42,909 bases of DNA from a virus, in IMG/VR virus record IMGVR_UViG_3300029822_000863, positions 1-42,909 of that record; one strand, 5' to 3'. Below the pieces are notes generated by a model. That model saw only the letters and a program-made list of their open reading frames with translations. It searched no databases and was not told the DNA's origin. Positions 1 to 42,909 of the stretch are shown here, piece after piece. The position numbers were made by a program, and so were the translations under genes. Position 1 is the stretch's first letter, and every line of letters begins with the position of its first letter.

Positions 1-178
1 CAGAAATGGTGACAACTTACGTTTTATGAGACATTGATTCGTTTACGCAGGTCACTGAAAATCAGTCAAATGTGGCAAACGAACCGTATAAACAATGTAC
101 CACACATCCAATCTGGATGTTTGCATAAGCGAAAATATCAATAAAGAAAATAGAGGAGTAATTAGAGGAGTAATAAAT

Positions 179-805
179 ATGACCTTCAAACTTTCAAACA
201 CCGATATAGAATCTTGGACAGCTACCCAATTTTGGGAAACCGACCCATCGCAGAACGCACACGCAATATGCCGGATATGCATATACGTAGATTGGGAGGC
301 AAAAACGGCAGAAATAGAGACCGTCATGAACACAAACAACACGCCAGGGAGGATATGGCATGGTCTCGCAAGCTGGTATAATCTTCCAGAAGACACCGAT
401 TTCTCACGATTCGGGGCATTCTTCGCTGAAGAAATTCAACCTCTCCTCCAAAAAATCGGGGACTGCTTCAGCTCAAAGTGGGACGGTTCAAACTGGAATG
501 GACATTTCAGTGAGATATCCAACAACACCAAATGGGATCTCAACCAGCTCCTAGTGGGTCGGAATGTCCCACGGCATGACTATAGATATGCATTCTCGCT
601 TGAGGATGAATTCGGCAGCGACCAGAACCTTGTCAACTATCTCGACTTGGATGACATCGACCTCCTCAGCGCAGACCTCAACAATGAGGAAACACTCACG
701 AAAATCATCACAAGCATAGAAGAGGGTGACTGCGTCTTCCCAGGAATGACCAGGGCAGACTACAAAGCCGAACTCAAAGAAATTCAGGCGCGAATGCAGG
801 AGTGA
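179..805 (+). CDS. Hypothetical acidic protein
   Basis: ORF 95..805; ATG at 179 follows a GAGGAG RBS; no recognisable motif. Confidence 0.7.
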   Translation: MTFKLSNTDIESWTATQFWETDPSQNAHAICRICIYVDWEAKTAEIETVMNTNNTPGRIWHGLASWYNLPEDTDFSRFGAFFAEEIQPLLQKIGDCFSSKWDGSNWNGHFSEISNNTKWDLNQLLVGRNVPRHDYRYAFSLEDEFGSDQNLVNYLDLDDIDLLSADLNNEETLTKIITSIEEGDCVFPGMTRADYKAELKEIQARMQE

Positions 806-809
806 TCAA

Positions 810-1073
810 ATGATAAGAACAAGAGATCTAAAAAGACATCAAAAAGCACTTGAATCAGACAAAAAACGAGCATCAGAACTCAGGAAGGAAATCTGCGAAA
901 CACGAGATCAGATAGAAGAACTTGAGGAAAATCTCTTTTCTCTCGAATGCGAACTGGAGCCGACAGTCTCCAGGATATGCGCAGCAGAAAAACAGCAAGA
1001 GGCAGAAGACCAGACAATCTATGCCCGCAACAAACCACGACCAAAATCCGAAGCAAAGCTATCACTCTTCTAA
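810..1073 (+). CDS. Small coiled-coil protein
   Basis: 87 aa, E/K/L heptad-like pattern, tightly packed after the upstream gene. Confidence 0.65.
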   Translation: MIRTRDLKRHQKALESDKKRASELRKEICETRDQIEELEENLFSLECELEPTVSRICAAEKQQEAEDQTIYARNKPRPKSEAKLSLF

Positions 1074-1134
1074 TACTACAGGAAGAAAGAACAACCCCAT
1101 AGAGGGCGATCAAATTCTACGGAGGGTATGATAA

Positions 1135-1395
1135 ATGATAAAAATCTTTTCGACATCGGTATGTCCAAAGTGTAATAGACTTAAAGTGTTACTAGCAAAA
1201 CACGGAATCGAGTTTGAAAGCATCAACGTAGACGACGCAGCGGGACTAACAGAAATGTTTCTTCTCGGAATTGTCACGCGCGATGCTCCGGTGCTTGCTA
1301 ACGGGAACACCGTGCTGTACACGAAAGACATGTTCGTTGGAGGAGTATTGGACGAAGAAAGGGTATTGCGGAGTTGCAATTTCGATGGAGCGTGA
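1135..1395 (+). CDS. Glutaredoxin/NrdH-like redoxin
   Basis: IKIFSTSVCPKCNRLK (CxxC), followed by a cis-Pro-like APVL motif; 86 aa. Confidence 0.85.
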   Translation: MIKIFSTSVCPKCNRLKVLLAKHGIEFESINVDDAAGLTEMFLLGIVTRDAPVLANGNTVLYTKDMFVGGVLDEERVLRSCNFDGA

Positions 1396-1398
1396 ACG

Positions 1399-1512
1399 AT
1401 GCAAACGACTACCGAATGCGAAAACTGCGGAAAAACGATGAAACTAATCGACGGAAAATTCAAAACATACTTCTATTGTACATGCTGCGGAAATTCTGAA
1501 TTGCAACACTGA
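1399..1512 (+). CDS. Zn-ribbon miniprotein (37 aa, not in ORF track)
   Basis: Manual translation MQTTTECENCGKTMKLIDGKFKTYFYCTCCGNSELQH, CxxC-x16-CxxC pattern. Confidence 0.6.
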   Translation: MQTTTECENCGKTMKLIDGKFKTYFYCTCCGNSELQH

Positions 1513-1554
1513 AAAGCATGGGCGTTTTTAAAAAAGAGAAACGTGAAGATTACT

Positions 1555-4425
1555 TCACTTTTTTGATTTTAATTTTGTTGTACGTTTTTCACGTGGGCCC
1601 CCGCCGAAGAAACTGTCCATGTCCCCTAAAGTATTTCGGATCGTTCGCTTCATTCTATACAAATCGCGATCGGTTTCAAGCACACTCTCTGCCTTCTTTC
1701 TCTTTGCTGTTTTTGTAAACGGCTTGCGTTTTGTTTGTCTGAATGTCGGTATACCACCGTCACGCGCCAACGTTTTGGAGTTCAAACCGCGTGGGATTCC
1801 TTTACGCACGGACGTTTTACTCGATATCGGTTTACTCGATGCGGTTTTACTAGATGTGGTTTTACTCGATATCGGTTTACTCGATGTGCTTTTCCGCGAG
1901 GTGGTTTTACTCGATGCGGTTTTACTGGATGTGCTTTTCCGCGATATGGCTTTACTCGATATCGGTTTACTCGATGCGGTTTTACTAGATGTGGTTTTAC
2001 TCGATATCGGTTTACTCGATGCGGTTTTACTGGATGTGCTTTTCCGCGATATGGCTTTACTCGACATCGGTTTACTCGATGCGGTTTTACTAGATGTGGT
2101 TTTACTCGATATCGGTTTACTCGATGCGGTTTTACTAGATGTGGCTTTACTCGATGTGGTTTTACTAGATGTGCTTTTCCGCGAGGTGGTTTTACTCGAT
2201 GCGGTTTTACTAGATGCGGTTTTACTAGATGTGGTTTTACTCGATATCGGTTTACTCGATGTGCTTTTCCGCGATGTGGTTTTACTCGATATCGGTTTAC
2301 TAGATGCACGCTGCCGCTGCGCGCGTGATCGGACACCAATACTCAATGCCCCCCCACCTCCACCACCAGTCGCGGTGCCACCATCCGTCCCACTCGAGTC
2401 ACCTGGCGTCGCGTTTCCGGAAGCTTGTCGCACAAAAGCAGTTTTTGACCGATTGGAGACGCCCTTCGAAATTGTCTTAGAGATATTCACCGGAGTGGAC
2501 GAGAACATCAGCTCGAGATCTTTAGCCGTTCCACCTTTTAAAGCATTTCCGACATCAGCAACGGCTTTTGCGTCTCCAGCCACGAGTTCAGCTATCTCAG
2601 TTTTCGTTGGCAACTTGCCATTGTCTACTATATATTTTACAATGGGGGATTCTAAAATTTCAGGGTGCCGTTTTGCAGCAATTTGAGCATACTGCACCAC
2701 TTCTTTTGATATTCCCACCCGTTTCGTGACCTCGTACGCCGTGCCGATTTCGATGAGGTCCCTGACATCTTTAACTCTGCCCCCATGCATGAGGTCTATC
2801 TTGCCGTCCTTGAGTGTCGTACCGCCTGCGAACTTCCTGGCAGACTGTTCCTGCAGCTTCATCATTTTCACAGAATCTGCTTTTATGGACTCCATACCCT
2901 TGAATCCAAACGCAATGCCTGATTCAGGTCTGTATCCAACTCCCTCTGCCGCCTCTATCGTGCCTTTAGCTGTTTTTTTATGTGAGAATACTTCAATGCC
3001 CTTTTCCCACTTATCATTCATCCTGAACTCGATTTTTGGTGCTGTTTTTTCCCCGGTTATTCTGTAATTCACCCCCTCTTTAAACCCATTCGCGGTTGCA
3101 TTTTTTCTAAACATCGAGACGAACTTATCTACGGAGTTGACAGATATTTCAATGTCTTTTGGTGTCCGTGAAAAGTATCCATCCATCTGCAGTTTCTGTG
3201 GAACTGAACCATAAACTTGAATGTCCCTACCGACAAGTCTTCCTGTTTTGCTGCCATAATCCTTGATTGTTTGCTTTACAATCGGTTTCATATCAGCCGC
3301 GACGTGCGCGCTTAACACCTCAAGCTCTTTGGGCTTTGTTATTGGAGATTTCTGCTTGTACGCAGTTTCCGCGATCTTTTTACCCGCGGCAAAGTAGTCC
3401 TGCTCGAGCTGGTCAAATTGCTTTAACGTCTTCTCGAAGGCTTTCGTGTCCGCTTTAGTGAATGCCTGCACCTGTTTTCCTTCGAGCATCTTTTTGTCTG
3501 CCGACAGTGTGCCTTTTTGGAACTTTCTAGAAGATTTTGAGTACGAGACGATTGGTTTCTTTCCTATCGAGGCAGTATAACCAAGGTTTATATCCCGCAC
3601 TGCAGCAGCTTCTCCTGGAGTGACCTCTTGAAGCTTCGTGGATCTAACATGAATTGGGTTGATTTTTTTAACGCCCCTGCCTAAACCTTCCATGAACGCG
3701 AGACTGGTTGCGAATCTTATGGGATCGGACGTCACGGATTTTGATATCATACCCGCGCCTATCGGCATTGACGGGAGTATAGTTTTTGGTTTCTGAGCCC
3801 ATCGCTCAACCCCCTTCGATACCCCACCGACCATCGATGGCATGTCGGTAACATCATACACACCTTTCACAACCGAACCAACGACCGGGAGACTATCAGT
3901 CACACGCACCGCCGCGTCTTTTCTCGTCACCCTCCCAAGATAAGCAGACGCGGCTTTTCCGCGATCATCCAGCCACTCGGATGCCTTCGAGTACTCAAAT
4001 TCGCGCTTAGGTTTGTACGAATCAACAACGTCCTGCATTGGACGGCTCAATTCCTCGCCTGTAGCCAGTCGCTTTCCCGCGTCGTATAACAGACTAGCTT
4101 TCTGGACAGCCGTGTATTTTTTCGCGTTCGTTTGTATCTGGGACGGGGCACGTCTGGCGCGTTCCGCTTCCACTGCGCGCACCTGGGTGGACAATCTCTG
4201 ATCTTGCTGCCGGTATGCAGATGAGCCACCCGGTGTTTGTGACCAACTCGCGTTGCGCGCCGCCTGCGCTTTCTGCACTTCCCGCTGTCTCGCATAGTTT
4301 GACCCGGACGAACTGCCTACCACCCCACCGGACGCATTCCGGCTAGCTGTCGTTTTTGCAGCATGCCCGCCGCGTGCCTCCGATAGCGACACGTGCGTTT
4401 TTCCTGAGCTATCGACGTATGCCAT
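1555..4425 (-). CDS. 956-aa basic protein with a putative AbiEii/MenT-like nucleotidyltransferase domain and an S/K/T repeat tail
   Basis: Long ORF with RBS; motifs VYGS-x11-RTPKDIEI, GIEVF and GRVKDVRDL; 33 pentapeptide repeats near the C-terminus. Confidence 0.85.
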   Translation of the reverse strand: MAYVDSSGKTHVSLSEARGGHAAKTTASRNASGGVVGSSSGSNYARQREVQKAQAARNASWSQTPGGSSAYRQQDQRLSTQVRAVEAERARRAPSQIQTNAKKYTAVQKASLLYDAGKRLATGEELSRPMQDVVDSYKPKREFEYSKASEWLDDRGKAASAYLGRVTRKDAAVRVTDSLPVVGSVVKGVYDVTDMPSMVGGVSKGVERWAQKPKTILPSMPIGAGMISKSVTSDPIRFATSLAFMEGLGRGVKKINPIHVRSTKLQEVTPGEAAAVRDINLGYTASIGKKPIVSYSKSSRKFQKGTLSADKKMLEGKQVQAFTKADTKAFEKTLKQFDQLEQDYFAAGKKIAETAYKQKSPITKPKELEVLSAHVAADMKPIVKQTIKDYGSKTGRLVGRDIQVYGSVPQKLQMDGYFSRTPKDIEISVNSVDKFVSMFRKNATANGFKEGVNYRITGEKTAPKIEFRMNDKWEKGIEVFSHKKTAKGTIEAAEGVGYRPESGIAFGFKGMESIKADSVKMMKLQEQSARKFAGGTTLKDGKIDLMHGGRVKDVRDLIEIGTAYEVTKRVGISKEVVQYAQIAAKRHPEILESPIVKYIVDNGKLPTKTEIAELVAGDAKAVADVGNALKGGTAKDLELMFSSTPVNISKTISKGVSNRSKTAFVRQASGNATPGDSSGTDGGTATGGGGGGALSIGVRSRAQRQRASSKPISSKTTSRKSTSSKPISSKTTSSKTASSKTASSKTTSRKSTSSKTTSSKATSSKTASSKPISSKTTSSKTASSKPMSSKAISRKSTSSKTASSKPISSKTTSSKTASSKPISSKAISRKSTSSKTASSKTTSRKSTSSKPISSKTTSSKTASSKPISSKTSVRKGIPRGLNSKTLARDGGIPTFRQTKRKPFTKTAKRKKAESVLETDRDLYRMKRTIRNTLGDMDSFFGGGPREKRTTKLKSKK
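1810..2304 (-). repeat. Coding tandem repeat, 33 x 15 bp (S-[SR]-K-[PTAS]-[ITAMS])
   Basis: Units such as TTTACTCGATATCGG, TTTACTAGATGTGGT and TTTTCCGCGA... counted from the translation, in frame with 1555..4425. Confidence 0.95.
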
Positions 4426-4440: not shown

Positions 4441-4710
4441 TTACGCCTTTTTGATGCTCAATTTTGCGGTCGGTGCACTGGACTTCACGAGTTTATACGT
4501 TTTGTCCTTATCTGCGGCCGTGCACCCGACACGCAGGCTCGCTGTGAATTTATATCCAGCCACGAGCTTCTTTATCGGTGATGTTGTCGCACTCCCAATC
4601 TTTGATACTTTGGCTCGGTGCAGCGTAGCTTCGCGTTTGGTTTTGAACGGGCCATAATCAAACGATGCAGTTATAATGTAGTCAATCGATATATTCTGTT
4701 TATTTGCCAT
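4441..4710 (-). CDS. Small basic protein, possible DNA-binding virion protein
   Basis: 89 aa, K-rich, has its own GAGGAG RBS and an upstream TATA-like element. Confidence 0.7.
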   Translation of the reverse strand: MANKQNISIDYIITASFDYGPFKTKREATLHRAKVSKIGSATTSPIKKLVAGYKFTASLRVGCTAADKDKTYKLVKSSAPTAKLSIKKA

Positions 4711-4842
4711 ATGATCTCCTCTTTATTAATCCCCAAAAAAACATAACATTATAGTAATATTAGTCAGTCAATCTATAAAAACGTAACGTAATGCAGTTGC
4801 AAAACTGCAGTGGTAAAAGAGACAAGCAAAAAAAACAACTCG

Positions 4843-5457
4843 TTAGAATTGCCCTAACGAGTAATCGGAATCGACAACTGACTCAGGCGGAACACCACCG
4901 TCATCCACTGTGAAAAATGTGTTTTCGCGTTGTTTTATCACGGGGAAGAATATGTACAGCAGAGTCGTTAGGAATGCTGGTAGCATTAGCGTATAATACA
5001 TCAGCTTGACACAGAAGTGCCGGAAACCAGAAGATTCCCACACTTCAGACACATTGACGATTGCACTTGCATCCAATGCCCCAGTAATTGCGTCGGCCGC
5101 AATACCCACGCCATACACGAGGAACGTCGATATGACAATTCCAATTACCATCATGAACAGATACTCGAAATACAGTTGGGCGGGTATCTCAGACCCCTTC
5201 GATCGCTCGAATGCATATATAATCAACCCGGCGATGACGAAAAATGGGGCGGCCTTCCACATATCAAGCATTGTTTCAAATGCATTTTTTGTATCATCGG
5301 ACACGACGCCGTCGGCAATCATTGCATTAAACCCATCGATCGGGACATTGAACGAAGTTGAAAACACGATGTACATCAACCCGAAAACGAAAAACGCCGT
5401 CCCCAACACGAGGATTATCATAGACCCCGCAGTTTCGTCCGAATCAAATTTTTTCAT
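4843..5457 (-). CDS. Multi-pass membrane protein
   Basis: About four hydrophobic segments; likely start MKKF at 5457. Confidence 0.75.
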   Translation of the reverse strand: MKKFDSDETAGSMIILVLGTAFFVFGLMYIVFSTSFNVPIDGFNAMIADGVVSDDTKNAFETMLDMWKAAPFFVIAGLIIYAFERSKGSEIPAQLYFEYLFMMVIGIVISTFLVYGVGIAADAITGALDASAIVNVSEVWESSGFRHFCVKLMYYTLMLPAFLTTLLYIFFPVIKQRENTFFTVDDGGVPPESVVDSDYSLGQF

Positions 5458-5470
5458 TGCATCCACCCAC

Positions 5471-5923
5471 TCAAACGAACATGTCAACGAGGCTCTTTCG
5501 GGCGCGAGCCGACACAGCCATCCTGACGACCTTGGTTTTCGATTTCGCCTTGTCGATGCCTGCCTTCACCGATGTTTTGAGCGGGGCGCGCGTTGTTTTC
5601 GGCTTCGGCTTAACCTCGGATAATTTTTTCGCCTTCCTGACCATCCCTGCGCGGATGTCAGCAGTCGGTATCAATTTCGATTCACAAATCGCGAAAACGT
5701 CATCGAACGACAACGATTTTGCAAGTTTGCGCACGATAGACGCTTTTTTCTTATACGCGACCATTTTTTCTGTGTCGTAATCATAATAGACGAGTTTGAT
5801 TTTCCGACGCTTTGCAATTGCCCTGAGCGAATCTACACTAACCCGGTCAAGCATTTTACGCTTTGCGTCGTTCTCGTTTTTAGCAAGCTTCACGTCTCGG
5901 ACAAAATTTCCCACCGTACCCAT
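5471..5923 (-). CDS. Basic protein with a HeH/Rho-N-like motif and K-rich tail
   Basis: SVDSLRAIAKRRKIKL motif; 150 aa, very basic; GGTGA RBS. Confidence 0.7.
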   Translation of the reverse strand: MGTVGNFVRDVKLAKNENDAKRKMLDRVSVDSLRAIAKRRKIKLVYYDYDTEKMVAYKKKASIVRKLAKSLSFDDVFAICESKLIPTADIRAGMVRKAKKLSEVKPKPKTTRAPLKTSVKAGIDKAKSKTKVVRMAVSARARKSLVDMFV

Positions 5924-6148: not shown

Positions 6149-7111
6149 TCATGCAAACCCCGCGGACACTTTCTTAGCATACCCGTAGTTCTCTCCGTTG
6201 GCTTCACATGCCGATTTCAACGACGGATATATGCCAGCTTCGACGTCGCGCATGAGCTCCTGAATACGCGCCTTTTTGGTAACTTTTTGTGGAACCTTTG
6301 AATTCGCGCCGGAACCACCCGAAGAACTTTTATCAACCATACCATCTAGAATTGTCTCAATGTTAGCCAATTGGAGCTTGCGCAACTGGATTTGTCGAAT
6401 CCGCTCATATACTTCCTCGAGTTCGTTCGGGCATTTTCCGAAACATACTTTATTGTATATCGCACGCTTTGTTTTCAGGTACGGGAAGATGTTCTTCCTC
6501 GATTGGCTGTTGTACATCTTCTGCACCTCGGTGAGCCGGCCAACGGCAACGGACTTCCCGATCCGCTCCAACTGTTTTGAGAATATCGGTTTGTCCATGA
6601 CGATTTTAAAACGGAGGATGTTTCGCCCCTTCACATCGATCCAATCACTATCCGGAACTGACATGAAGATTATGTTATTGTCAGTCCGCATCGTTTGTAG
6701 GACATCGTTCATCGCTTCGTTTGGCTTGGATTGCCACTTTCGGTTGTTGTATGCAACTCCAAAGTCATCGAACACGAACACGCCATATTTGCTCGTTGGA
6801 CGGCGCATGATGTTGATTGTCCGAAGCACCTGCTCAGGTCCAATGGTCGCGAGATGCCCGATGTTGAAATAGTCAGACGGCACCCCACCGTACTTGGAAG
6901 CAAGCCCAACCGCACACCAACACGCGGTATAGAGAGTCGCATTTGACTTTCCCATACCAGGCTTTCCCTCGAGCAGACAAATGACATTCTGATTTTTTGA
7001 GTGGATGATGATATCGGTAAACACTTCAGCGAGACAGATATTGTCCATCTCGCCGTCCTGTATTACATTGCCCTCGATCCCGCTCAATGACTCATTTTCG
7101 AATTTACCCAT
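6149..7111 (-). CDS. P-loop ATPase (viral morphogenesis/packaging type) with possible C-terminal HTH
   Basis: Walker A GKPGMGKS, Walker B GVFVFDD; lies among membrane protein genes. Confidence 0.85.
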   Translation of the reverse strand: MGKFENESLSGIEGNVIQDGEMDNICLAEVFTDIIIHSKNQNVICLLEGKPGMGKSNATLYTACWCAVGLASKYGGVPSDYFNIGHLATIGPEQVLRTINIMRRPTSKYGVFVFDDFGVAYNNRKWQSKPNEAMNDVLQTMRTDNNIIFMSVPDSDWIDVKGRNILRFKIVMDKPIFSKQLERIGKSVAVGRLTEVQKMYNSQSRKNIFPYLKTKRAIYNKVCFGKCPNELEEVYERIRQIQLRKLQLANIETILDGMVDKSSSGGSGANSKVPQKVTKKARIQELMRDVEAGIYPSLKSACEANGENYGYAKKVSAGFA

Positions 7112-7700
7112 TTCCCTCAGCCTCTTTTTTAGCTTGTTTAAGCGATTCCTCTTTCTGTTTTATCCGCCCTTCGGTTGCCTTAATTTCGTCAATCGCATCT
7201 TTCATGGACGCTTCGAGTGTCCCGGTCTTGTCGATTGCAAACGCTGCGGTGCATTCGAATATACCGAAATTCATCGCCTTCTTTTTTAAGTCTTCGTTCG
7301 TGACTTCCATTACAATCTGCTTTTTCTTCAACCCAAGAAATGGGTCAAACTCCTCGAAACATTTCGCAATCATTTTAATATTTTCACGGAATATCAGTTT
7401 ATTCGCGCGCTTTACGTCGCTTTTACACTCTTTATTTATCGCGTCAATCTTATCGTCACGCAGATCGAGCAGATTAACGCACTTCTTTTCTTCCAACACG
7501 AACGTCGTCAGAAGCATCGTGAGCATATCGATACGCGGATCTGAATATTTCTCATCACCAGACCCACCTGCGGTCTGCAAAACGTTGTTTATAGCATCCA
7601 CAACGTTGTACATGCGCTGCAGATGCTGATCTTTGACGACGAATTGCCTGTCATCAGTCGTGTACGTTTTTGTTCCAGTTTCTTTATTGATCGAAGGCAT
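7104..7700 (-). CDS. Hypothetical protein
   Basis: 198 aa, overlap-coupled in the ATPase operon. Confidence 0.7.
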   Translation of the reverse strand: MPSINKETGTKTYTTDDRQFVVKDQHLQRMYNVVDAINNVLQTAGGSGDEKYSDPRIDMLTMLLTTFVLEEKKCVNLLDLRDDKIDAINKECKSDVKRANKLIFRENIKMIAKCFEEFDPFLGLKKKQIVMEVTNEDLKKKAMNFGIFECTAAFAIDKTGTLEASMKDAIDEIKATEGRIKQKEESLKQAKKEAEGNG

Positions 7701-8053
7701 TACAATTTCACCAATCCCATATTTTTCAGAACAACCGTGGTATCATCAAACAATTTCAACGAATCGGTATAAAACCGAGCGGGGGCATCAGAACTCGGAA
7801 ACGATACAGTTTGCCAAGCCTCTATTTTTTTAGACAGGTCCTCGTCGAATCCTTCTTTTATCCGCACAAGATAGTACATTTCGTAGAAAAGTACTCGGAA
7901 TTGCGTTAGTGATTCCCGCATATCGGATTTCTGCCTGAAATTCATTTGAAGCCGCATCCGAGCGGCGACTTCGCACAAATTCATATATATTTCAGTGAGC
8001 CTAAAAAGTATTGGGGAGTATACGGTGGGGGTAACGTCGCCCACATCAACCAC
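7700..8053 (-). CDS. Hypothetical protein
   Basis: 117 aa, TAATG coupling. Confidence 0.7.
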   Translation of the reverse strand: MVDVGDVTPTVYSPILFRLTEIYMNLCEVAARMRLQMNFRQKSDMRESLTQFRVLFYEMYYLVRIKEGFDEDLSKKIEAWQTVSFPSSDAPARFYTDSLKLFDDTTVVLKNMGLVKL

Positions 8054-8438
8054 CCTTGTTGATTATCATGTAATATATCAGGGGCACCATCAGGATTATG
8101 AGCCCGATGATAACTTTCAACCAATGTTTGTCCATCCAATCAACCTGATCCTTTTTATCACCAAGCTCCTGCAGTGTAAGCAGGTTGTTTACCATATTTC
8201 CCGTGACCCCCACCGTACACAGTTCCGCAGCCTCGGTCAAGTACAACGGCTCACATTTGATTGGCGTACACTCTACTTCTTTTCGGAAGATGATGATCTC
8301 CTCCATCAGACGCTTTGCAGCGAAATCAACCTGCGAATCGTCGACCTCATGTATCTCTGGGATTGCCTTACTCTTCGATTTCGACTTCATCATACTCACC
8401 TTCCTCAAACTCATCCACACCGTCGTACTCGTCTTCAA
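8046..8438 (-). CDS. Membrane-anchored protein (C-terminal TM); start uncertain
   Basis: WLKVIIGLIILMVPLIYYMII hydrophobic segment. Confidence 0.7.
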   Translation of the reverse strand: MKTSTTVWMSLRKVSMMKSKSKSKAIPEIHEVDDSQVDFAAKRLMEEIIIFRKEVECTPIKCEPLYLTEAAELCTVGVTGNMVNNLLTLQELGDKKDQVDWMDKHWLKVIIGLIILMVPLIYYMIINKGG

Positions 8439-9012: not shown

Positions 9013-9251
9013 ATACTCTCCATACGTTCATCAATCGCTTCAACGCGGGACGACAGTACATTAATCATATCACTCTGGCGGTATAACACACCAAGTCCAA
9101 GAAACCCCACGGCAAGCATGCAACTCACCATAGGCGCAATCGCATCATCCATGGCACCATGCAACTGCGAAATGCAAACAGTGGCAATACAACAAGATAA
9201 ACTTCCAACACACATTGCACTAGATAAAACCAAATTTAAACGCATACTCAT
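9009..9251 (-). CDS. Small two-TM protein
   Basis: Two hydrophobic segments, ATGA overlap. Confidence 0.65.
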   Translation of the reverse strand: MSMRLNLVLSSAMCVGSLSCCIATVCISQLHGAMDDAIAPMVSCMLAVGFLGLGVLYRQSDMINVLSSRVEAIDERMESM

Positions 9252-9835: not shown

Positions 9836-9836
9836 G

Positions 9837-11969: not shown

Positions 11970-12014
11970 ACATGGTATTATATGCTTTACCAACATATAT
12001 AGTTTTTGGTAAAT

Positions 12015-33069: not shown

Positions 33070-34698
33070 ATGATAGAATGTTTTCCGTCGACTAATAAAA
33101 TAAAAACATATCGAGAGCAGCAGCTCGAAATTGTCAACTGGATCGAAAATGGACTGAATGCAGGAAAAACGAAGTTCATTATTTGTGCACCGACTGGATC
33201 TGGAAAAAGCGCAGTGGCTAAATGCATTGGCAATTACTTCGAGAAACTGGGTAAGAAGACCTTGATCACGTCACCGCTAAATACTCTCGTGGATCAATAC
33301 GAGGAGTTTGCGGATGATCAGAACGGGAGCCAGTTGGTCACATTGAAAGGAAAGTCTAATTATCCGTGTCTGGCTCGATATGAGCTCCGAGGAAACGTGC
33401 TTGATAATTGCGAGAATGGGTTCTGTGCTGGGGACATCTGCTCAATGGACTACGACGCGGGCAAGAAGATCATATATAAAAAACGTAATTGCAAAAACTG
33501 TCGGGTGGACTGCCCCTGCAACCACTGTAAATATAAGGGTGTAATGCGTGAATTCAAACAATCTATGATTGGGAATACAAATTTCACCTTGTTGCAGATG
33601 GGCATCACGAATGATCCCGATGTGCTGATTGTGGATGAATCTGATTACATCGAACCATTCATCCGAATGTTCAGATCTGTGACGATCTCGGAGTGTTGGG
33701 ATTTTGATGACTGGGATGCGCATTTGGTGTGTCTTGATGAACTCTCTAAGCAGCTTGAGTATGAACTCAATCATCTGCAACCATCTGTTGATAATATTCG
33801 ACGAAAAAAACGCCTGGAAATGCAGATATTCAAAATACGTGCGATGTTGAATGACTTTGTGTCGCATCAGGAAAAGTGGGTCGTAAAACACAACAACGAA
33901 AAAACGACTTCGTATGAACCAATTTCAATAGGTAGGTTCATCGACGACGCACTAAAGACCGATGAAAGAATTGTGTTCATGATATCGGCTACTCCGGAGA
34001 AAATCGACGGATGGGAATTTCTCGAAGTCGGTAGTCCATTTCCGGCGCACATCCGGCCGATAAAATATATACCAGTTGGATCACTGAGTCTGAAAAACAG
34101 GAGTTCTACAATTCCAGTGCTCGCTGATTTCCTGCGCCGGGGAAACTTGAGATGGCTCGTGCCTGGCAAAACTATTGTACATGTTCCGAGTTACGCCGTC
34201 GCGGCTGAGTTGGGACAGGAAATCGTTAAACGTAGTGGTGGGCTTGTTCGGCCAATCGTGCAGACGCGCGAATGTAGTATGTTGGGTGGCATTGAGGGGG
34301 CTGCCCTGCGAAAAGATGTGATCGAGAAGTTCAAAACATCAACTGAGCCATGGCAGATATTAATTGCTGTAAATATGGGGCGTGGAATTGACCTACCCGA
34401 GTTGGGAATAAAAAACAACATAATAACTTGTCTCAAACGACCAAACCCCACTGATCCGCTCGTGAAGGCCAAACTGCGCCACTTGGGAGGTGGGTGGGCG
34501 TTCACTGAAACTGCAAACGAGCTGATGCAGAGTTATGGCAGGATCAACCGGAACGGAGACAAAACAACGAATACAATTATAACTGAACCGGAGTTTGAAA
34601 AATTCATGAGGTTGCATGGTGATAAATTTAGAGGGTGGTTCACCGAAGCAATTGTAGTTGGGGGGAAATGGGCACATGCCGACAATTGGAAAAATTGA
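33070..34698 (+). CDS. SF2 helicase, Rad3/XPD/DinG-like with Cys-rich insert
   Basis: APTGSGKS, KGKSNYPC, DESD, SAT, GRGIDLP, QSYGRINR. Confidence 0.88.
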   Translation: MIECFPSTNKIKTYREQQLEIVNWIENGLNAGKTKFIICAPTGSGKSAVAKCIGNYFEKLGKKTLITSPLNTLVDQYEEFADDQNGSQLVTLKGKSNYPCLARYELRGNVLDNCENGFCAGDICSMDYDAGKKIIYKKRNCKNCRVDCPCNHCKYKGVMREFKQSMIGNTNFTLLQMGITNDPDVLIVDESDYIEPFIRMFRSVTISECWDFDDWDAHLVCLDELSKQLEYELNHLQPSVDNIRRKKRLEMQIFKIRAMLNDFVSHQEKWVVKHNNEKTTSYEPISIGRFIDDALKTDERIVFMISATPEKIDGWEFLEVGSPFPAHIRPIKYIPVGSLSLKNRSSTIPVLADFLRRGNLRWLVPGKTIVHVPSYAVAAELGQEIVKRSGGLVRPIVQTRECSMLGGIEGAALRKDVIEKFKTSTEPWQILIAVNMGRGIDLPELGIKNNIITCLKRPNPTDPLVKAKLRHLGGGWAFTETANELMQSYGRINRNGDKTTNTIITEPEFEKFMRLHGDKFRGWFTEAIVVGGKWAHADNWKN

Positions 34699-35259: not shown

Positions 35260-35345
35260 AAACCAATAAACTTTTTATAGTTTGGCCACATACATGGTAA
35301 ATAAATTAGTTGAATTGAGTGAGTTTGATTTTGGGGGGAAAATTG

Positions 35346-35792
35346 ATGAGTTACGGCAGTGTTCGTGAGTCGAAGCGGTTTCTAGCGACGTTTCAGGTCG
35401 GCACGTCGCTTTCAAAAGCCCGGAGACATTATCACAATTACATAGATAATCGTTCGTTTGGTGATTTTCTACACTGTGGTAGCCGTGGAAAGGTCACGGT
35501 AAAGCCGTTGGATCGGATGATGCGATGGCGGGTTATATATATTTTCGGTGGGGCGTGTGCAATATGTGGGGACCCTGAGCGACTCGAGGTTCATCATATC
35601 GTGCCGCGATCGCGCTGTGGGACAAACGATATTTCAAACCTTGTCCCGCTCTGTCATGACTGTCACTGCGCCATTCACGAAATGTCTATGATGCGTGGTA
35701 GTGTGTCTGTGCGTGGAAACGTGCCATACGCAGAACGTTTCTGCGGCGTTTTGTCTCAGGACGTCGCATACTGCAATGGGTTGGTGGCGTGA
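35346..35792 (+). CDS. HNH endonuclease
   Basis: CAICG...EVHHIVPRS...NLVPLCHDCHCAIH. Confidence 0.85.
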   Translation: MSYGSVRESKRFLATFQVGTSLSKARRHYHNYIDNRSFGDFLHCGSRGKVTVKPLDRMMRWRVIYIFGGACAICGDPERLEVHHIVPRSRCGTNDISNLVPLCHDCHCAIHEMSMMRGSVSVRGNVPYAERFCGVLSQDVAYCNGLVA

Positions 35793-37199
35793 ATGTTGGA
35801 TGCGCGAGAGATCCGTGCGCACTATAAACGCCCTGAAATTGTCGAGGCAATTACAAGAATCTCGACTTTCGGTAATTGCAGTAGATCTGGGATGAAATTC
35901 ATCCCATGTGCGTACACTGACCGGGAAACTGGGGAAATCCGTGACGCGATGGATTGGTATAACCTTCGCCCTGGAAGCAGGAGAGTGAAGAAAAAAATCA
36001 ATCTGTCGAGCATGAAACACTATTTCAATGCCGTGACCGAGTGCAGAACGCTGTACTGGACTCTGAATGTATTTGAAAACGAAATATTCGACGTTGATTA
36101 TAGGCGGGTCGATGTGGTGGATGGCCCCATGCTGAGCAGGTCATACACAGTTGGGTATACGCTCGGAATTGACATAGACAGAGGGCGTGGATGTGACATC
36201 CATGATCCGGATGTAAAACGTGCCGTCGAGGATATGGCACAATTTTTCACGGATCAATTGCGCGTGTATCTTCCCGATTCAGTGTATGTTTTGTACTCTG
36301 GTGGGGGGATATATATAATGCTGCATCACAGAGCATTTGAAAAATATTTCGATCGGTTCAGATATTCGGACGATTGGGATATGATGTTGCTGACCTTCCT
36401 TGACGCATTCGATTGTCTGATTGGGGACATGCGAGAGGCGTTTTTCAAGGCGTTTCCTCATCACGTGGGGAAAGTCAAGCCGGATCAGTTGAATGGCTCC
36501 CAACGTGTCTTCAAGACGATCTACAGCGTACACAAAACGCTTGATTATGCGGTTGTCCCGCTGGACCCGGATGACATCAAGATCAACTTTGATGATGCGA
36601 CACTTCCACTGTCCGACTCTGTGATTGCCAGTGGAAAGTCCTGGTACACCCAGTGGGTCGATGGAACGGAATTTCTGAACAATGTACTCAAACCGTATCT
36701 TGAAAATTCGTACAAAAACAGAAGATCTGTGATAAGCCGCGTGGGTGGTGGAGAAGTTGCAATTTCAGAGATGCCGATTGGATACGAAAAATGGGCACCG
36801 TGTATGAAAAATCTATTCGAGTTGGAAAGTTGTGGAGAGGGCGCGACCAGGGCGCTCGCGGTGTTCTGCAGCTATTTGGGACAGATTGGGATTCCCGAAG
36901 ACGAAGCATTTGAATGGTTTAATATGCTCGCTAGCAGGTGGAATGCCAGGACAAGTAACCTGTTCGAGAGCTATTACCGGAATATGAAAGTTCCGACATG
37001 CGAACGACTCAATGCGCTTGACAACGTTGGATTTCCAAGGGGTGTTTCTCTTCGCAATCTCTGTGTTTGTGCGCCGGACGATCGTTGCAGGAAAGTCCCG
37101 TCTCCGCTATATTACTCGGATGCGGATGCTGAGAAAAAACGAATGGAAAGTAAAGCCGATCGAGTAGTCGAATATAAACCAGTTATAAATTTGAGGTAG
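35793..37199 (+). CDS. Archaeo-eukaryotic primase with fused PriL-like C-terminal domain
   Basis: GIDID, YSGGGIYIMLH, RVFKTIYSVH; C-terminal WAPCMK...PTCERL...C-C Cys cluster. Confidence 0.8.
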   Translation: MLDAREIRAHYKRPEIVEAITRISTFGNCSRSGMKFIPCAYTDRETGEIRDAMDWYNLRPGSRRVKKKINLSSMKHYFNAVTECRTLYWTLNVFENEIFDVDYRRVDVVDGPMLSRSYTVGYTLGIDIDRGRGCDIHDPDVKRAVEDMAQFFTDQLRVYLPDSVYVLYSGGGIYIMLHHRAFEKYFDRFRYSDDWDMMLLTFLDAFDCLIGDMREAFFKAFPHHVGKVKPDQLNGSQRVFKTIYSVHKTLDYAVVPLDPDDIKINFDDATLPLSDSVIASGKSWYTQWVDGTEFLNNVLKPYLENSYKNRRSVISRVGGGEVAISEMPIGYEKWAPCMKNLFELESCGEGATRALAVFCSYLGQIGIPEDEAFEWFNMLASRWNARTSNLFESYYRNMKVPTCERLNALDNVGFPRGVSLRNLCVCAPDDRCRKVPSPLYYSDADAEKKRMESKADRVVEYKPVINLR

Positions 37200-37224: not shown

Positions 37225-37518
37225 ATGAAAATATCGGAACTGCAGAAGGAAATTCACAGAAACGCAATTGAGCATGGGTGGTGGGAGGATCAGCGTCCAA
37301 TCCCGGAGCTGCTCTGCCTTGTCCATGCTGAGGTATCCGAAGCACTTGAAGCGTACAGAAAACGCGATGATGAGCATATGGCTGAAGAGCTCGCGGATAT
37401 TGTAATAAGAGTTATGGATATGTGCGAGGCGTATGATATCGATCTTGCGCACGAAATTACAAGAAAGCACGAAATAAACAAGCTTAGACCGTATAGACAT
37501 GGAAACAAGCGGTGTTGA
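37225..37518 (+). CDS. MazG-like NTP pyrophosphohydrolase
   Basis: HAEVSEALEA...EELADIVIR. Confidence 0.85.
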   Translation: MKISELQKEIHRNAIEHGWWEDQRPIPELLCLVHAEVSEALEAYRKRDDEHMAEELADIVIRVMDMCEAYDIDLAHEITRKHEINKLRPYRHGNKRC

Positions 37519-37611: not shown

Positions 37612-37947
37612 ATGGAATTAACTATCCGTGAAAACGTGAGTGAGCAGATTTACAATTGTATATGTCAAACTGCTGATGCAAAAGGGTACATGGTCATTGA
37701 AACAGATTACGAATTTGGGAGTAGCTATTGTCTGTATAAACAATGTAATTGGTTCAAGCGACTTTTCAAACGGCATGTGTTACGATTTTCGTACAGGAGT
37801 TGTAAAATGTATATACATGGTGTTAATGAAAATAATTACGATGACACGATAAATTTAATCGAACGGATGTTTAGTGGCATCGATGGGTTGGAGATTGTAA
37901 TTGAGAAGAATTTCAGGACATGCAGAACTCGGAGTGATACAATATGA
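37612..37947 (+). CDS. Hypothetical protein
   Basis: 111 aa, GGTGA RBS. Confidence 0.6.
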
Positions 37948-38387
37948 CTACTAGACCACGAATCGATGTATACTTTCTAAACATCGCTTCTGTTGTTGCG
38001 ACCCGATCTACGTGCCTACGTAATCACGTAGGCTCAGTAATTGTCAAGAATAAGAGGATTCTTTCGACTGGGTATAATGGGGCTCCGAGTGGCATGGAGC
38101 ATTGCCTAGACATTGGGTGTGTGCGCGACTTGGAGAATATTCCATCGGGCACTAGGCATGAAAAGTGTAGGGCAGTGCATTCAGAACAGAATGCAATTAT
38201 CCAGGCTGCGATTCATGGAGTCAGTATAGAAGGAGCAACCATTTACTGTACACACCAGCCCTGTATTCTTTGCGCCAAGATGATTATTAACGCAAACATC
38301 AAAAGGGTCGTATATCGGAATGGATATCCGGACGAAGATTCGTTAAAATTCCTACACGACGCATCGATTGAAGTTGAAAGGGTATAA
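37944..38387 (+). CDS. dCMP deaminase
   Basis: GYNG, HSEQNA, PCILC. Confidence 0.92.
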
Positions 38388-39386: not shown

Positions 39387-40052
39387 TTACCAAAATTTCA
39401 CGTTTAAACTGTCTAATATCGATCGTTCCTGCCGCTCGTCCATTCTCGCATATGTTTTTAGCGTAATTGCAGTTGAGCTGTGTGCAAGCCGATATGCGAT
39501 TGTTTCGGCTGGTACACCTTGTGACTGCAGGTGCATGGCAATTCCATGGCGAAACATGTGTGGATGTATGTGCCGCATTCCAACGATGTGCGCGAGCTCC
39601 ACGAGAAGTTTATTTATTGCTTGTCTGGTGATTGCCTTACTCGACCCGCGTCGCGCAGGAAAGATATGCCCCCTCATTTCCCACGTTTGGATGTAGTCCA
39701 TCAGTGCGGCGAGCGTTTCCATGTCAAGTCCGATCGTGTGCCAGAATTCTCCCCCGTTCTTTGCTTTTCTGCTCTTCCGTTTGTGTACTAGAAATGTTAT
39801 CGTTTTGTCCTTGTAGCTTATTCTGGCCGTGTTCATCTCCGTGACATCTGATACTCTCGCGCCAGTTGCCCACATGAGCTGCAGGAACAGTTTGTTTCTG
39901 TCCCTGATCCATCTATAGTTCTCGGTCTGTTTAGAGCGTTCGTATGTGACGTCGCACGCTCTTTTCAGCGTTTCCACTTCGTATAGTTCAATGTGGTCAA
40001 CCTGCTCCTTTAAAAGTAAGTCTCCACCACCAAAGGGTACTAGTGAATTCAT
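39387..40052 (-). CDS. Small tyrosine recombinase (catalytic domain only)
   Basis: TGARVSD, K, HPHMFRH, LAHSS...TLKTY; 221 aa. Confidence 0.9.
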   Translation of the reverse strand: MNSLVPFGGGDLLLKEQVDHIELYEVETLKRACDVTYERSKQTENYRWIRDRNKLFLQLMWATGARVSDVTEMNTARISYKDKTITFLVHKRKSRKAKNGGEFWHTIGLDMETLAALMDYIQTWEMRGHIFPARRGSSKAITRQAINKLLVELAHIVGMRHIHPHMFRHGIAMHLQSQGVPAETIAYRLAHSSTAITLKTYARMDERQERSILDSLNVKFW

Positions 40053-40654: not shown

Positions 40655-40783
40655 TTAATTATTGATTTCATCATATGCAAATGTGATTCGTTTCTCGCAT
40701 AGATCCGTGTTTACTCCGATATCATATGAACAGCATTTACATCTTAATTTTTTACATTCGTTTAAGTTGGTGGGTGTCGTCAT
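40655..40783 (-). CDS. Cys-rich miniprotein (42 aa, not in ORF track)
   Basis: MTTPTNLNECKKLRCKCCSYDIGVNTDLCEKRITFAYDEINN. Confidence 0.45.
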   Translation of the reverse strand: MTTPTNLNECKKLRCKCCSYDIGVNTDLCEKRITFAYDEINN

Positions 40784-40787
40784 TTCT

Positions 40788-41021
40788 TTAGTACCACCCG
40801 CGTTGATCTCCGCCATATTTTTTAATTAGCTGTGGAAATTTCTTTTGTGTTGCGTATACGATTATTGTTTTTTTATCTGATTTGTCTACTCTGAAAGTGA
40901 CTTTCTGTCCCCTCGCGCCAAAAAATTCTTTTTGTTCTTTCTTTTGCCGTTCGGAGTTCGGTACATCACCTGCATAAACATAACGCTCGTTGCGCACTGT
41001 AATTGTTCTTTGTATATCCAT
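40788..41021 (-). CDS. Small basic protein
   Basis: GGAGG RBS before ATG 41021, own TATA-like promoter. Confidence 0.6.
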   Translation of the reverse strand: MDIQRTITVRNERYVYAGDVPNSERQKKEQKEFFGARGQKVTFRVDKSDKKTIIVYATQKKFPQLIKKYGGDQRGWY

Positions 41022-41076
41022 TGTTACGATTCCTCCTATATAGTAATTAGTTCTCAATGTATAAAAAACATTGCTT

Positions 41077-41373
41077 TCAATTCTTTGGATTATACAGCCC
41101 GCAACTTTTCAACCCCTTTGTATAATGCGGTCTGGTCTGACTCGGATAAATCTCATGTGTGCAAATGTACTTTCCATGAATTTCTTTTCCTGCATGTGTG
41201 TGGACACTGTACCGGCAAGTCGCGCATAGTTCATCATTTGCGTGTAACAGAACCGTCATGAAGGTTTTACAATGGCTACATGATTTAATTTTCTTTCCTT
41301 TTCTGTTGCACCTGCACACGTTAGGTTCATTCGTGCGGCTTAAGTGCTTACAGTCTCCGTAGAAGGTTGTCAT
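41077..41373 (-). CDS. Cys/His-rich protein
   Basis: 98 aa with multiple CxxC-like groups. Confidence 0.6.
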   Translation of the reverse strand: MTTFYGDCKHLSRTNEPNVCRCNRKGKKIKSCSHCKTFMTVLLHANDELCATCRYSVHTHAGKEIHGKYICTHEIYPSQTRPHYTKGLKSCGLYNPKN

Positions 41374-41432
41374 TAAAAAGAGAAGGAGTTAATTATATTT
41401 AAGGTTTATTTAAAAAAGAAATGAATGGAGTG

Positions 41433-41794
41433 GCAATTACTTAGCTTCCCGTTGTGGAGAAGCTGTAAAAAAGAAAAAGAGAAAGGACGATTAACGCGCG
41501 TCAAACTTATAGACGGCGAACTTGCCTTTTTTCACCTCAACGACGCGGAAATAAACATCGTATCCTTTATAGCGTTCGCGGTGTATACCGGCCTCTATAT
41601 TTGCGTCTGTCTTTGATTGCAGAAAACTCGACACTGCCCGAAATTTTTTCCCTGATATCTTCCTGAAATCAGGTACGTCTGAAACCCGTGCTTTACTAGA
41701 ACATTGTTTTACCACGCTATTAACCTCCTATATTAGTATTGTACCTTAAACTATTTAAGTATGTGTTCTTGTGTGCGTGCAATTACTTAGCTTC
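41433..41794. repeat. 16-bp direct repeat GCAATTACTTAGCTTC (41433-41448 and 41779-41794) flanking one small gene
   Basis: Two identical copies read directly. Confidence 0.75.
41491..41715 (-). CDS. Small basic protein
   Basis: GGAGG RBS + GTG, own promoter. Confidence 0.6.
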   Translation of the reverse strand: MVKQCSSKARVSDVPDFRKISGKKFRAVSSFLQSKTDANIEAGIHRERYKGYDVYFRVVEVKKGKFAVYKFDAR

Positions 41795-42123
41795 AATCGG
41801 AGGTTTAAGCTCTCTTATCCTTGCGTTAATCTCCTTAACCCGGTCACCGACTGCGACCATTTTGCTGAAATAATCATCCACTGTTCACTATATAATAATT
41901 AGCTGTCAATATATTTAAATCGTTGCATTTACGATATATATTTAACACTGTTGGTTGTTCAGTCGTTTGTTGCCTATGTAGTGCGAATGTTTAAATATGT
42001 TGCAGACCATATTAAAAATACTACATTGAGAAATTGGGGATGAACGAATGATGACAAATGCAATGAAACTTACACTTTTTAAGAATGCACTTGAGCAGTT
42101 TTCTTGGGGGGTGCAATAAAACA

Positions 42124-42909
42124 ATGATCGACTTAACGAATGCTGACAGCGTATCATCTACGGCAATTGCCGAGTCTTTACCTATGGTCCGGAACACGGA
42201 CGGGTTTAAGGCTGAATGGAACAGGAACAAAATAATTGACATGATCCTGAAAGAAACAAAACTGAGTGAGATTTTCTATAGCAAACCCGCAGCGACATAC
42301 GAAGAAGCTGAGGCAATTGCAACGGAAACCGAATCGATTGTCATGAAAACGCGACTTGATTTTTTGTCCGGCCCGTTGATCCGAGAAATTGTAAATAATG
42401 TACTGATTGCGCGCGGGCACTCTGAGTGGCGCGATGTGATGACCAGGGTTGGTGTGTCGGTTTATGATGCTCATGAAATTGATACTGGATATGGCTTTGA
42501 GGCAAACGACAACGCAAATCAGCTCAACAACGCTGAAACTTCACATAAAAGAAAAGCCGACAAAATGTCCAAGGAGCAAAATCTCCTTCTGATGCCAAAA
42601 GAGCTTGCAGATTTACATTTGAATGGGGATTTCCATATCCATGACCTCGAATATATGGGCACCAGGCCATTTTGCCAGGATTGGGATCTTCGCTACTTTT
42701 TTTACTATGGTCTCATGCCTGATGGGGTGGGAACTCAATCCAGCGTGGCAAAGCCAGCAAAGAATGCTGAGGTGGCCTTTCTTCATGCGGTAAAAGCTAT
42801 GGGTTCGGCCCAAACCAATTTTGCAGGTGGGCAGGGCTTTTACAATTTTTTGACTTTTATGGCTCCCTATTTGGAAGGCAAATCCGAAACCGAAATCAAG
42901 CAGCTTATG
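42124..42909 (+). CDS. nrdD: Anaerobic (class III) ribonucleoside-triphosphate reductase, 5' part, truncated by the window end
   Basis: Manual translation: ATP-cone-like LSGPLIREIVNNVL, then DFHIHDLEYMGTRPFCQDWDLRYFF and AQTNFAGGQG. Confidence 0.92.
   Translation, partial: MIDLTNADSVSSTAIAESLPMVRNTDGFKAEWNRNKIIDMILKETKLSEIFYSKPAATYEEAEAIATETESIVMKTRLDFLSGPLIREIVNNVLIARGHSEWRDVMTRVGVSVYDAHEIDTGYGFEANDNANQLNNAETSHKRKADKMSKEQNLLLMPKELADLHLNGDFHIHDLEYMGTRPFCQDWDLRYFFYYGLMPDGVGTQSSVAKPAKNAEVAFLHAVKAMGSAQTNFAGGQGFYNFLTFMAPYLEGKSETEIKQLM

Follow-up and report, generated by a model that had tools for sequence, protein, structure and literature searches.

The contig analysed here raises the question of what kind of virus encodes its own sliding clamp, primase, helicases and nucleotide-metabolism enzymes next to a cluster of small membrane proteins. 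The 42,909-bp stretch (referred to as the window) is the entire IMG/VR virus record IMGVR_UViG_3300029822_000863, a single contig and not a piece of chromosome. The first-pass annotation, made from the letters and the open reading frames (ORFs), had proposed a large spindle-shaped-like virus of a methanogen with a layout resembling that of the fuselloviruses and of His1. The follow-up analysis led, with a probability of about 0.8, to its reading as a temperate virus of the archaeon Methanosarcina that lacks a tail and is of the hairpin-capsid (spindle- or lemon-shaped) type; the window represents about 70–90 % of its circular double-stranded DNA genome. The genes of the window form a structural arm (approximately 1.5–18 kb) and an enzymatic arm (approximately 19–43 kb). 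The assignment to the spindle-virus type is based on three genes: an ATPase belonging to phrog_5484, a DUF5658 protein, and a hairpin protein with a weak profile match to known capsid proteins. The same three features uphold the fusellovirus/His1-type layout proposed earlier. Coordinates of all features are collected in Table 1.

Candidate capsid proteins

The two small hydrophobic proteins noticed at the first pass are organized alike: two long hydrophobic segments are separated by a loop of 15–20 residues containing a glycosylation sequon and are followed by a basic C-terminus. The first was designated candidate major capsid protein 1 (MCP1) and the second, its divergent paralogue, candidate capsid protein 2. 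The AlphaFold2 (AF2) model of MCP1 (pLDDT 84.5) consists of a helix (residues 2–35), a loop and a second helix (residues 50–83). The architecture of small two-helix capsid proteins of about 70–90 residues was thus found by transmembrane (TM) prediction, in the AF2 model and as the same layout in 34 family representatives. These 34 representative members (E<1e-3) were obtained when 1.84 billion representative proteins were searched with a profile; they are 50–161 residues long and share the hairpin without exception, and in several of them an N-terminal extension resembles the propeptide of VP1 of Sulfolobus spindle-shaped virus 1 (SSV1).

A 30-sequence profile of the hairpin family was compared, using hhalign, with SSV1 VP1/VP3 and His1 VP21, whose template profile comprised only 3 sequences. 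The comparison gave a probability of 59–65 % (P 6e-5 to 9e-5, 62–76 columns, score 26.8–28.9). Reversed alignments scored 16.8–18.5 (probability 3–7 %), and column shuffles 6–12 versus 26.8. Against the SSV/His1 profile, scores of 9–13 were obtained for nine further small membrane proteins with 2–3 hydrophobic segments each, taken from the window and His1. The match to the SSV1/His1 capsid proteins is weak but clearly above these controls. Candidate capsid protein 2 was aligned with the MCP1 family at a probability of 64 % by the hhalign tool and at 92 % (P 5e-7) in a separate run, and it stays adjacent to MCP1 in two large relatives, L001 and G001.

The loop sequon is present in 29 of the 30 hairpin relatives, whereas 10.8 would be expected from the composition of the loop and the maximum reached in 1000 shuffles was 20. 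Such conservation points to N-glycosylation of an outward-facing loop. N-glycosylation of the corresponding loop has been reported for SSV1 VP1.

Other genes of the conserved virion module

The ATPase of the structural arm has phrog_5484 as its best PHROG, and the same PHROG also takes SSV1 B251 (5e-101), His1 ORF16 (3e-62) and the ATPase of Haloferax lemon-shaped virus LSV-48N (8e-6). Its homologues in G001 (4e-9) and in a small Methanosarcina element (1.4e-13) match phrog_5484 more strongly than the window ATPase itself. LSV-48N was also the sole match of the window ATPase in a tblastn search of 50,697 phage records; in a search of the same records neither hairpin protein gave a match. The three-TM DUF5658 protein scored 40.9 bits in Pfam against a cut-off of 25.2 and matched phrog_7761 (E 0.0018), the PHROG which also takes the SSV1 gene L009:7122-7430 (2.9e-41), annotated as 'DUF5658 family protein'.

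These genes belong to a conserved 12-gene module, comprising the ATPase, DUF5658 and hairpin genes, whose order is fixed across relatives of 19–61 kb. The six genes between MCP1 and the ATPase keep their order in L001, partly in G001, and in a provirus of approximately 19 kb (G118:C33); no Pfam or PHROG family was found for this block.

The 824-aa protein, recognized at the first pass as an adhesin with a three-TM anchor followed by small TM genes, is indeed built in this way. It contains a CarboxypepD_reg beta-sandwich domain and has homologues in G001 (1234 aa) and, in two copies, in the G118 provirus. It is a candidate receptor-binding or end-fibre protein, the role being suggested, in analogy to SSV1 VP4, by how large it is, where its gene lies and how its TM segments are arranged. 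The 956-aa protein with a Lys/Ala-rich tail has homologues of 1450 aa in G001 and, at 53 % identity, in L012. The 89-aa lysine-rich protein may be a DNA-binding virion protein by analogy with SSV1 VP2; a 42 %-identical counterpart is encoded directly after the capsid gene in a Methanosarcina element of approximately 9 kb.

Relatives and completeness of the genome

At least three relatives of the window were found in IMG/VR: L001 (59.7 kb), G001 (61.3 kb) and G002 (39.4 kb). G001, of 61,329 bp, has a 99-bp direct terminal repeat and was rated complete. Homologues in G001 exist for 42 of about 60 window genes, at 29–88 % identity and largely in the same order. The exception to this synteny is the adhesin block, displaced and inverted in the window: in G001 (L015:10133-14854) it sits between the ATPase region and the genes for the 3-TM, basic and large proteins, and in the window on the other side of the capsid genes. 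The extra genes of G001 encode TnpB, a ParA-like ATPase, a family 4 (GT4) glycosyltransferase (L016:16891-17964) and a C5 methylase. His1 has a glycosyltransferase too (ORF31), and the GT4 gene of G001 fits glycosylation of the capsid loop sequon.

The last gene of the window, nrdD, leaves the 3' end after 275 codons, the NrdD homologue in G001 being 758 aa long. No terminal repeats, direct or inverted, were found in the window. Circular closure of the window itself was considered and rejected: nrdD read across the junction meets a stop after 3 codons, and a terminal repeat is missing. Because nrdD is cut and this stop lies 3 codons past the joined ends, the window is a fragment rather than a complete circle. 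The missing part is probably small, since the counterparts of the two end genes, redoxin and nrdD, are only approximately 4 kb apart in G001; judged by synteny, about 3–5 kb are probably missing, with the remainder of nrdD and a handful of other genes, whereas the CheckV estimate given below would imply a larger gap. For the first window ORF, no exact copy that could extend the contig is on record.

The genes are densely packed. Up to approximately 27 kb most of them are on the minus strand, between 27.2 and 38.7 kb on the plus strand, and the sign of the GC skew switches at approximately 27 kb, coinciding with the change of coding strand.

The host and integrated relatives

A search of species genomes with the capsid family revealed an 82 %-identical capsid copy in Methanosarcina sp. 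UBA293. This genome contains a CRISPR (clustered regularly interspaced short palindromic repeats) array (G003:C45:87915-88760) with a 37-nt repeat and a 73-nt period. Matches to the window exist for eleven of the 27 spacers, seven of them perfect and four with 1–2 mismatches. The protospacers are distributed along both arms, and 7 of the 11 have a TTA or TTG on their 5' side. In a spacer search of 151 Methanosarcinaceae genomes matches were found solely in UBA293, few candidates per genome being scored, so that the search says little on other hosts. Genes on another UBA293 contig encode proteins with 85 % identity to the window NrdD and 78 % identity to the window dCMP deaminase.

The ATPase was detected in 8 of 151 sampled Methanosarcinaceae genomes. 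In one of them, a provirus of approximately 19 kb (G118:C33:153900-172400; L040, L041) is integrated in a Methanosarcinaceae chromosome and encodes, in the order of the window, an adhesin, MCP1, six uncharacterised proteins, the ATPase, the 3-TM protein, a second adhesin and an integrase; the homologue of the window integrase borders the provirus. A second, 55 %-identical copy of the ATPase lies on a short contig (C36) of the same genome. From the spacers, the host-like nrdD and dCMP deaminase genes and the integrated relative in Methanosarcinaceae, the host is assigned to Methanosarcina, and the lineage is regarded as temperate in Methanosarcinaceae. A methanogen host had been proposed at the first pass from the type of nrdD and the IS605 ends; it is confirmed and narrowed to this genus by the spacer matching suggested there together with the host-derived genes, which are the stronger evidence.

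UBA293 also carries a smaller element. An integrated element of approximately 8.6 kb (L002:5175-13779) is located between host genes, and the same element is seen in L003–L007 and L020 (Methanosarcina sp. UBA293 DALS01000060.1). It encodes a 451-aa integrase, a 522-aa winged helix-turn-helix protein, one hairpin capsid protein, a small basic protein, a short integrase-like protein and a B251-type ATPase. The capsid protein is 82 % identical to MCP1 of the window, and the basic protein and the ATPase are 42 % and only 32 % identical to their window counterparts. The sequon is lost from the capsid protein (VDPAGD), and the element has no adhesin and no membrane proteins of the module, only one hydrophobic ORF of 37 aa. 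The element could represent a satellite, or a minimal relative whose capsid gene was recently swapped with that of the large virus. The same UBA293 genome contains both this element and the CRISPR array targeting the large virus. According to a wider proposal, which we hold to be speculative and rather unlikely, the lineage would be a family distinct from Eurekaviridae in which one core (hairpin capsid, small basic protein and B251-type ATPase) is carried by Methanosarcinaceae genomes of approximately 9, 19, 43+ and 61 kb, the 9-kb UBA293 element being a satellite that uses the particle of the large virus.

Alternative explanations

Several points weigh against the proposed assignment. The contig is incomplete, with a CheckV completeness of 72 % scaled to approximately 60 kb. 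The morphology of the virion is read from genes, and what the adhesin, the ATPase and the small membrane proteins do is deduced from position and topology only. The homology of the capsid proteins is weak, as the hhalign probability quoted above indicates, and the hairpin proteins had no match in Pfam, in PHROGs or in a sequence-profile search of the PDB. Foldseek gave no usable match of the hairpin model in the PDB and BFVD. A VIA-align comparison with 48,161 chains returned 231 chains at Z>=5, all of them generic helical hairpins, the SMV1 capsid protein 7ro2_A occupying only rank 37 (Z 6.1, root-mean-square deviation 3.1, 84 aligned residues). The structure search with the predicted model is thus neutral, neither supporting nor refuting the assignment; hairpins of this kind are not discriminated. 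The earlier expectation that these proteins resemble spindle-virus capsids agrees with the predicted hairpin fold and, weakly, with the profile comparison and its controls.

Since shape is unreadable from sequence and a helical hairpin is a generic fold, pleomorphic membrane vesicles, like those of a pleolipovirus, or another non-spindle particle could be formed by a virus of identical gene content, with the hairpins as envelope proteins. Pleolipoviruses too combine small membrane proteins and an NTPase with a large spike-like protein anchored in the membrane, and the profile match to the SSV1/His1 capsids is modest. However, the ATPase falls into the PHROG of SSV1 B251 and His1 ORF16, its sole relative at the BLAST level among the phage records comes from a lemon-shaped virus, and SSV1 has a DUF5658 protein as well. 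A virus of Methanosarcina with two coat-protein genes of this kind is called spindle-shaped by ICTV, the international committee on virus taxonomy, likewise by inference (PMC12451623). A non-spindle particle is therefore considered improbable. In both cases the element is a virus, and this could itself be disputed: an integrase, an insertion sequence (IS) element, methylases and replication genes are also expected of an integrative plasmid or another non-viral mobile element of Methanosarcina, G001 encodes a ParA-like ATPase, CRISPR arrays target plasmids as well, and the small related elements are devoid of most virion-type genes. The membrane-protein cluster would then serve transfer or some other function. 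On the other hand, families of conjugation, relaxase or type IV secretion proteins were matched by none of the ORFs tested, and the 12-gene module with its spindle-virus ATPase, DUF5658 and hairpin genes keeps a fixed order in relatives of 19–61 kb, which makes a plasmid very improbable.

The incompleteness of the contig, cut inside nrdD, would also fit a head-tailed virus, provided that its genes for capsid, portal and terminase are located in the absent segment. The complete G001, with its 42 shared genes, contradicts this: HK97 capsid, Terminase_6N and family-B polymerase (PF00136) had no match in the window, G001 or G002, the extra genes of G001 are limited to the four named above, and little space is left between the genes that flank the window ends. 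None of the ORFs tested gave a head, tail or portal match in Pfam or PHROG, except for one sub-threshold PHROG match of the ATPase to the 'morphogenesis' family of M13 protein I (E 0.0074). A head-tailed virus is regarded as the least probable of these alternatives, and the absence of terminase, portal and tail genes stated at the first pass holds for the ORFs tested. The spindle type remains the preferred reading, the spindle shape of the virion being itself a deduction from gene content.

Gene content of the two arms

Table 1 Features of the 42,909-bp window, ordered by position
Feature	Position	Strand	Evidence
Glutaredoxin/NrdH-like redoxin (CPKC)	1135..1395	+	NCBIfam GlrX_YruB E 4e-9, NrdH E 4e-6; below curated cut-offs
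956-aa protein, Lys/Ala-rich tail	1555..4425	-	Pfam HC2 (low-complexity, histone H1-like) E 9.5e-12, residues 707-874
150-aa protein, 214-aa three-TM protein, 89-aa lysine-rich soluble protein	4441..5923	-	Homologues in G001
AAA+ ATPase, SSV1 B251 / His1 ORF16 type	6149..7111	-	Best PHROG phrog_5484, E 6.2e-5, positions 34-231 of 239
Six conserved genes (219, 80, 214, 130, 117, 198 aa) between MCP1 and ATPase	7104..9907	-	Three with TM segments
Candidate MCP1	10128..10391	-	87 aa; TM 2-33 and 52-82; loop sequon NES
IS200/IS605 element between the two capsid genes	10857..12410	TnpB 10857-12062 (-), TnpA 12006-12410 (+)	Pfam OrfB_IS605 7e-32, Cas12f1-like_TNB, HTH_OrfB; Y1_Tnp 3e-37
Candidate capsid protein 2, divergent paralogue	13088..13345	-	85 aa; TM 1-29 and 51-80; loop sequon NVS
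Two small membrane proteins (75 and 116 aa), conserved virion module	13350..13924	-	TM prediction; 45-72% identical same-order counterparts in G001
DUF5658 three-TM membrane protein	13964..14254	-	Pfam PF18902 E 3.6e-10
824-aa candidate receptor-binding / end-fibre protein (adhesin)	14552..17026	+	TM 6-24, 739-767, 797-816; CarboxypepD_reg E 1.7e-9
Two 2-TM proteins 3' of the 824-aa protein	17078-17407, 17409-18050	+	TM prediction
UvrD/Rep-type helicase	19339..21009	-	Pfam UvrD-helicase 1.3e-23, UvrD_C 2.3e-10
MT-A70 family methyltransferase fusion protein	22701..24392	-	Pfam MT-A70 1.2e-25, residues 403-562
Secreted right-handed beta-helix protein	25515..26765	-	Pfam NosD 5.9e-12, Beta_helix 4.4e-11; N-terminal hydrophobic segment 4-27
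PCNA sliding clamp	30872..31594	+	NCBIfam NF002222 E 3.5e-28 over 1-238 of 245, below curated cut-off; Pfam PCNA_N/PCNA_C weak
Thymidylate synthase ThyA	31802..32458	+	Pfam Thymidylat_synt 1.9e-15
XPD/DinG-type superfamily-2 helicase	33070..34698	+	Pfam Helicase_C_2 2.6e-10, DEAD, ResIII
HNH endonuclease	35319..35792	+	Pfam HNH 1.8e-10
Archaeo-eukaryotic primase, Cys-rich C-terminal domain	35793..37199	+	Fold and motifs
MazG-like nucleotide pyrophosphohydrolase	37225..37518	+	Pfam MazG 8.9e-6
dCMP deaminase	37944..38387	+	Pfam dCMP_cyt_deam_1 4.3e-24
Tyrosine integrase	39387..40052	-	Pfam Phage_integrase 5.5e-22; 81% identical in G001
Anaerobic ribonucleotide reductase NrdD, first 275 codons	42085..42909	+	Pfam NRDD 2.7e-33, ATP-cone
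Protospacers	3072-3107, 3631-3668; nine others start 7204, 9160, 15816, 33363, 38521, 39162, 39422, 39515, 42367		Matches to UBA293 spacers

The enzymatic arm combines replication accessories with a deoxynucleotide pathway, as the first-pass annotation had stated, and includes no polymerase. PCNA, both helicases, ThyA, dCMP deaminase, NrdD and the glutaredoxin were all recovered by Pfam or NCBIfam, PCNA and the redoxin below the curated cut-offs. The tyrosine integrase, MazG, HNH endonuclease, MT-A70 methylase, beta-helix protein and complete IS200/IS605 element are additions to the first-pass list. The primase was recovered in another way. By sequence, its 468-aa product had no match in Pfam, PHROG, NCBIfam, phmmer or a profile search against the PDB. 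Its AF2 model (pLDDT 87.5) gave 26 Foldseek matches in the PDB at E<=1e-3, all of them archaeo-eukaryotic primase (AEP) enzymes (best E 1.3e-5), among them Prim-PolC, the polymerase domain of LigD, PriS/Pri1 and CAPP. Residues D127-I-D129, S169-G-G-G..H178-H179 and D231 and cysteines 337, 403, 426 and 432 are invariant in 25 relatives, and the language-model neighbours of the protein carry PF01896. Relatives of the primase with an organism name belong to Methanosarcina mazei, Methanolobus and Methanohalophilus. Because the fold match and the invariant motifs agree, the protein is identified from its predicted structure as an AEP primase in spite of the missing sequence-family match.

A Logan contig, L043 (SRR8925789), is 92–97 % identical to positions 25832–40550 of the window. 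Behind the integrase (L043:14945-17854) genes for TatC, TatA and a second NosD/beta-helix protein replace those of the window, and segment 37629–38316 of the window, which holds the dCMP deaminase gene, is absent. With one gene lost and these three present, the enzymatic arm is fluid. The end of L043 matches window positions 12933–13014, so its genome order differs from that of the window. The dCMP deaminase gene appears to be host-derived and variable.

The IS200/IS605 element is complete, has no copy at the equivalent place in G001 and L001, and is present at 73–80 % identity in Methanosarcina sp. UBA293. Window segments 18900–19195 and 12409–12468 show short matches, of 84–96 % identity, to several contigs of the same genome, which is consistent with IS200/IS605 ends or a miniature IS derivative that the host carries too. 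ARAGORN predicted a tRNA-Cys with the unusual anticodon ACA at 18569–18654 (minus strand), in an ORF-poor stretch. Family searches gave no assignment for proteins of 254 aa (28005–28769) and 272 aa (29973–30791).

Proposed mode of multiplication

In the model which follows from the spindle-type assignment, the two hairpin proteins would be inserted into the host membrane, their outward-facing loop would be N-glycosylated at the conserved sequon, and the glycosylated hairpins would pack into a lemon-shaped capsid lattice. The membrane-anchored 824-aa protein might form the receptor-binding structure at the tip of the particle, used for attachment, and the B251-type ATPase together with about ten small membrane proteins would complete morphogenesis. 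The 89-aa lysine-rich protein may bind DNA in the manner of SSV1 VP2.

For replication, the viral PCNA, AEP primase and UvrD and XPD helicases would recruit the host polymerase to the circular viral genome. NrdD with the redoxin would produce deoxynucleoside triphosphates (dNTPs) anaerobically; dCMP deaminase and ThyA would channel dCMP to dTMP, raising dTTP in particular, and MazG would trim the pool. NrdD and dCMP deaminase would have been acquired from Methanosarcina, and the tyrosine integrase would mediate lysogeny.

Comparison with known spindle-shaped viruses

The window resembles SSV1 and His1 in the hairpin coat protein with a loop sequon, the phrog_5484 ATPase and a large protein of the size of an end-filament protein, and SSV1 also in combining a DUF5658 membrane protein with an integrase. 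In contrast, its genome is three to four times larger than theirs, and the replication and dNTP arm is found in neither. No fusellovirus or His1 match was obtained by tblastn with the window ATPase and MCP1, the links being at the profile level only. Fuselloviridae have circular genomes of approximately 15–24 kb with a core set recognizable at the sequence level, whereas the window has at least 42.9 kb and its relative 61.3 kb, and its ATPase and MCP1 show no such sequence-level similarity to fuselloviruses. Halspiviridae and Thaspiviridae are characterized by a protein-primed PolB and inverted terminal repeats (ITRs); PF00136 is absent from all three genomes scanned and no ITR is present in the window. 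On these genes and genome features, the window is judged to be no fusellovirus and no virus of the His1 or thaspivirus type.

LSV-48N (PP151251.1) has a circular genome with integrases and its ATPase is 32 % identical to that of the window over 120 residues (E 4e-6), but the genome is 24.9 kb long, the host is haloarchaeal and no other window protein searched matched it. The 8.2-kb contig C1697 was described as a predicted Methanosarcina spindle-shaped virus with an SSV1-like capsid, identified by HHpred, and a protein-primed polymerase (Ngo et al. 2022, PMC9796341). It shares the predicted host genus and the capsid type with the window and differs in its polymerase, since no PolB is encoded by the window or its relatives; C1697 is a different kind of virus from the window lineage.

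Closer in layout are Itzamnaviridae, the spindle-shaped viruses of ANME-1 archaea, with two divergent capsid genes, circular genomes, structural and enzymatic arms, thyX or thyA, and size variants (Laso-Perez et al. 2023, PMC9894754). The window likewise has two capsid genes, a two-arm design and a thymidylate synthase, and the size variants here are of about 9, 19, 43+ and 61 kb; the likeness is at the level of layout only, and the host is Methanosarcina instead of ANME-1.

In 2025 the ICTV ratified Eurekaviridae for Methanosarcina spindle-shaped virus 1 (MSSV1), a circular virus with two coat-protein genes whose source was metaviromes of anaerobic digesters and whose genome is not significantly similar to those of other spindle-shaped viruses (PMC12451623). 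The window agrees in the Methanosarcina host and in two spindle-type coat-protein genes, circularity being shown only for the relative G001 by its terminal repeat. The lack of significant genome similarity to other spindle viruses fits the window too, which was compared with the exemplar (PQ167755) by description only. As judged from the description, the window may belong to Eurekaviridae or to a separate family. The suggestion that the lineage is possibly undescribed is weakened by the IMG/VR relatives and by the ratification of this family (PMC12451623). The window is regarded as an additional member of a recognised virus kind and may represent a new genus or family in it.

Significance

Methanosarcina serves as a model organism in genetics and is a major producer of methane in digesters, soils and sediments. 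To our knowledge, very few Methanosarcina viruses have been described and no spindle-type isolate is among them. A host genome linked to the lineage through its spacers, a complete 61-kb relative and integrated relatives together give a starting point for isolating such a virus. The gene set allows one to study how a virus devoid of a polymerase takes over an archaeal replisome with its own clamp, primase and helicases, and how viral NrdD, dCMP deaminase and ThyA shift the nucleotide pools of a methanogen. The finding extends the design of structural plus enzymatic arms, described for viruses of ANME-1, to cultivable methanogens.

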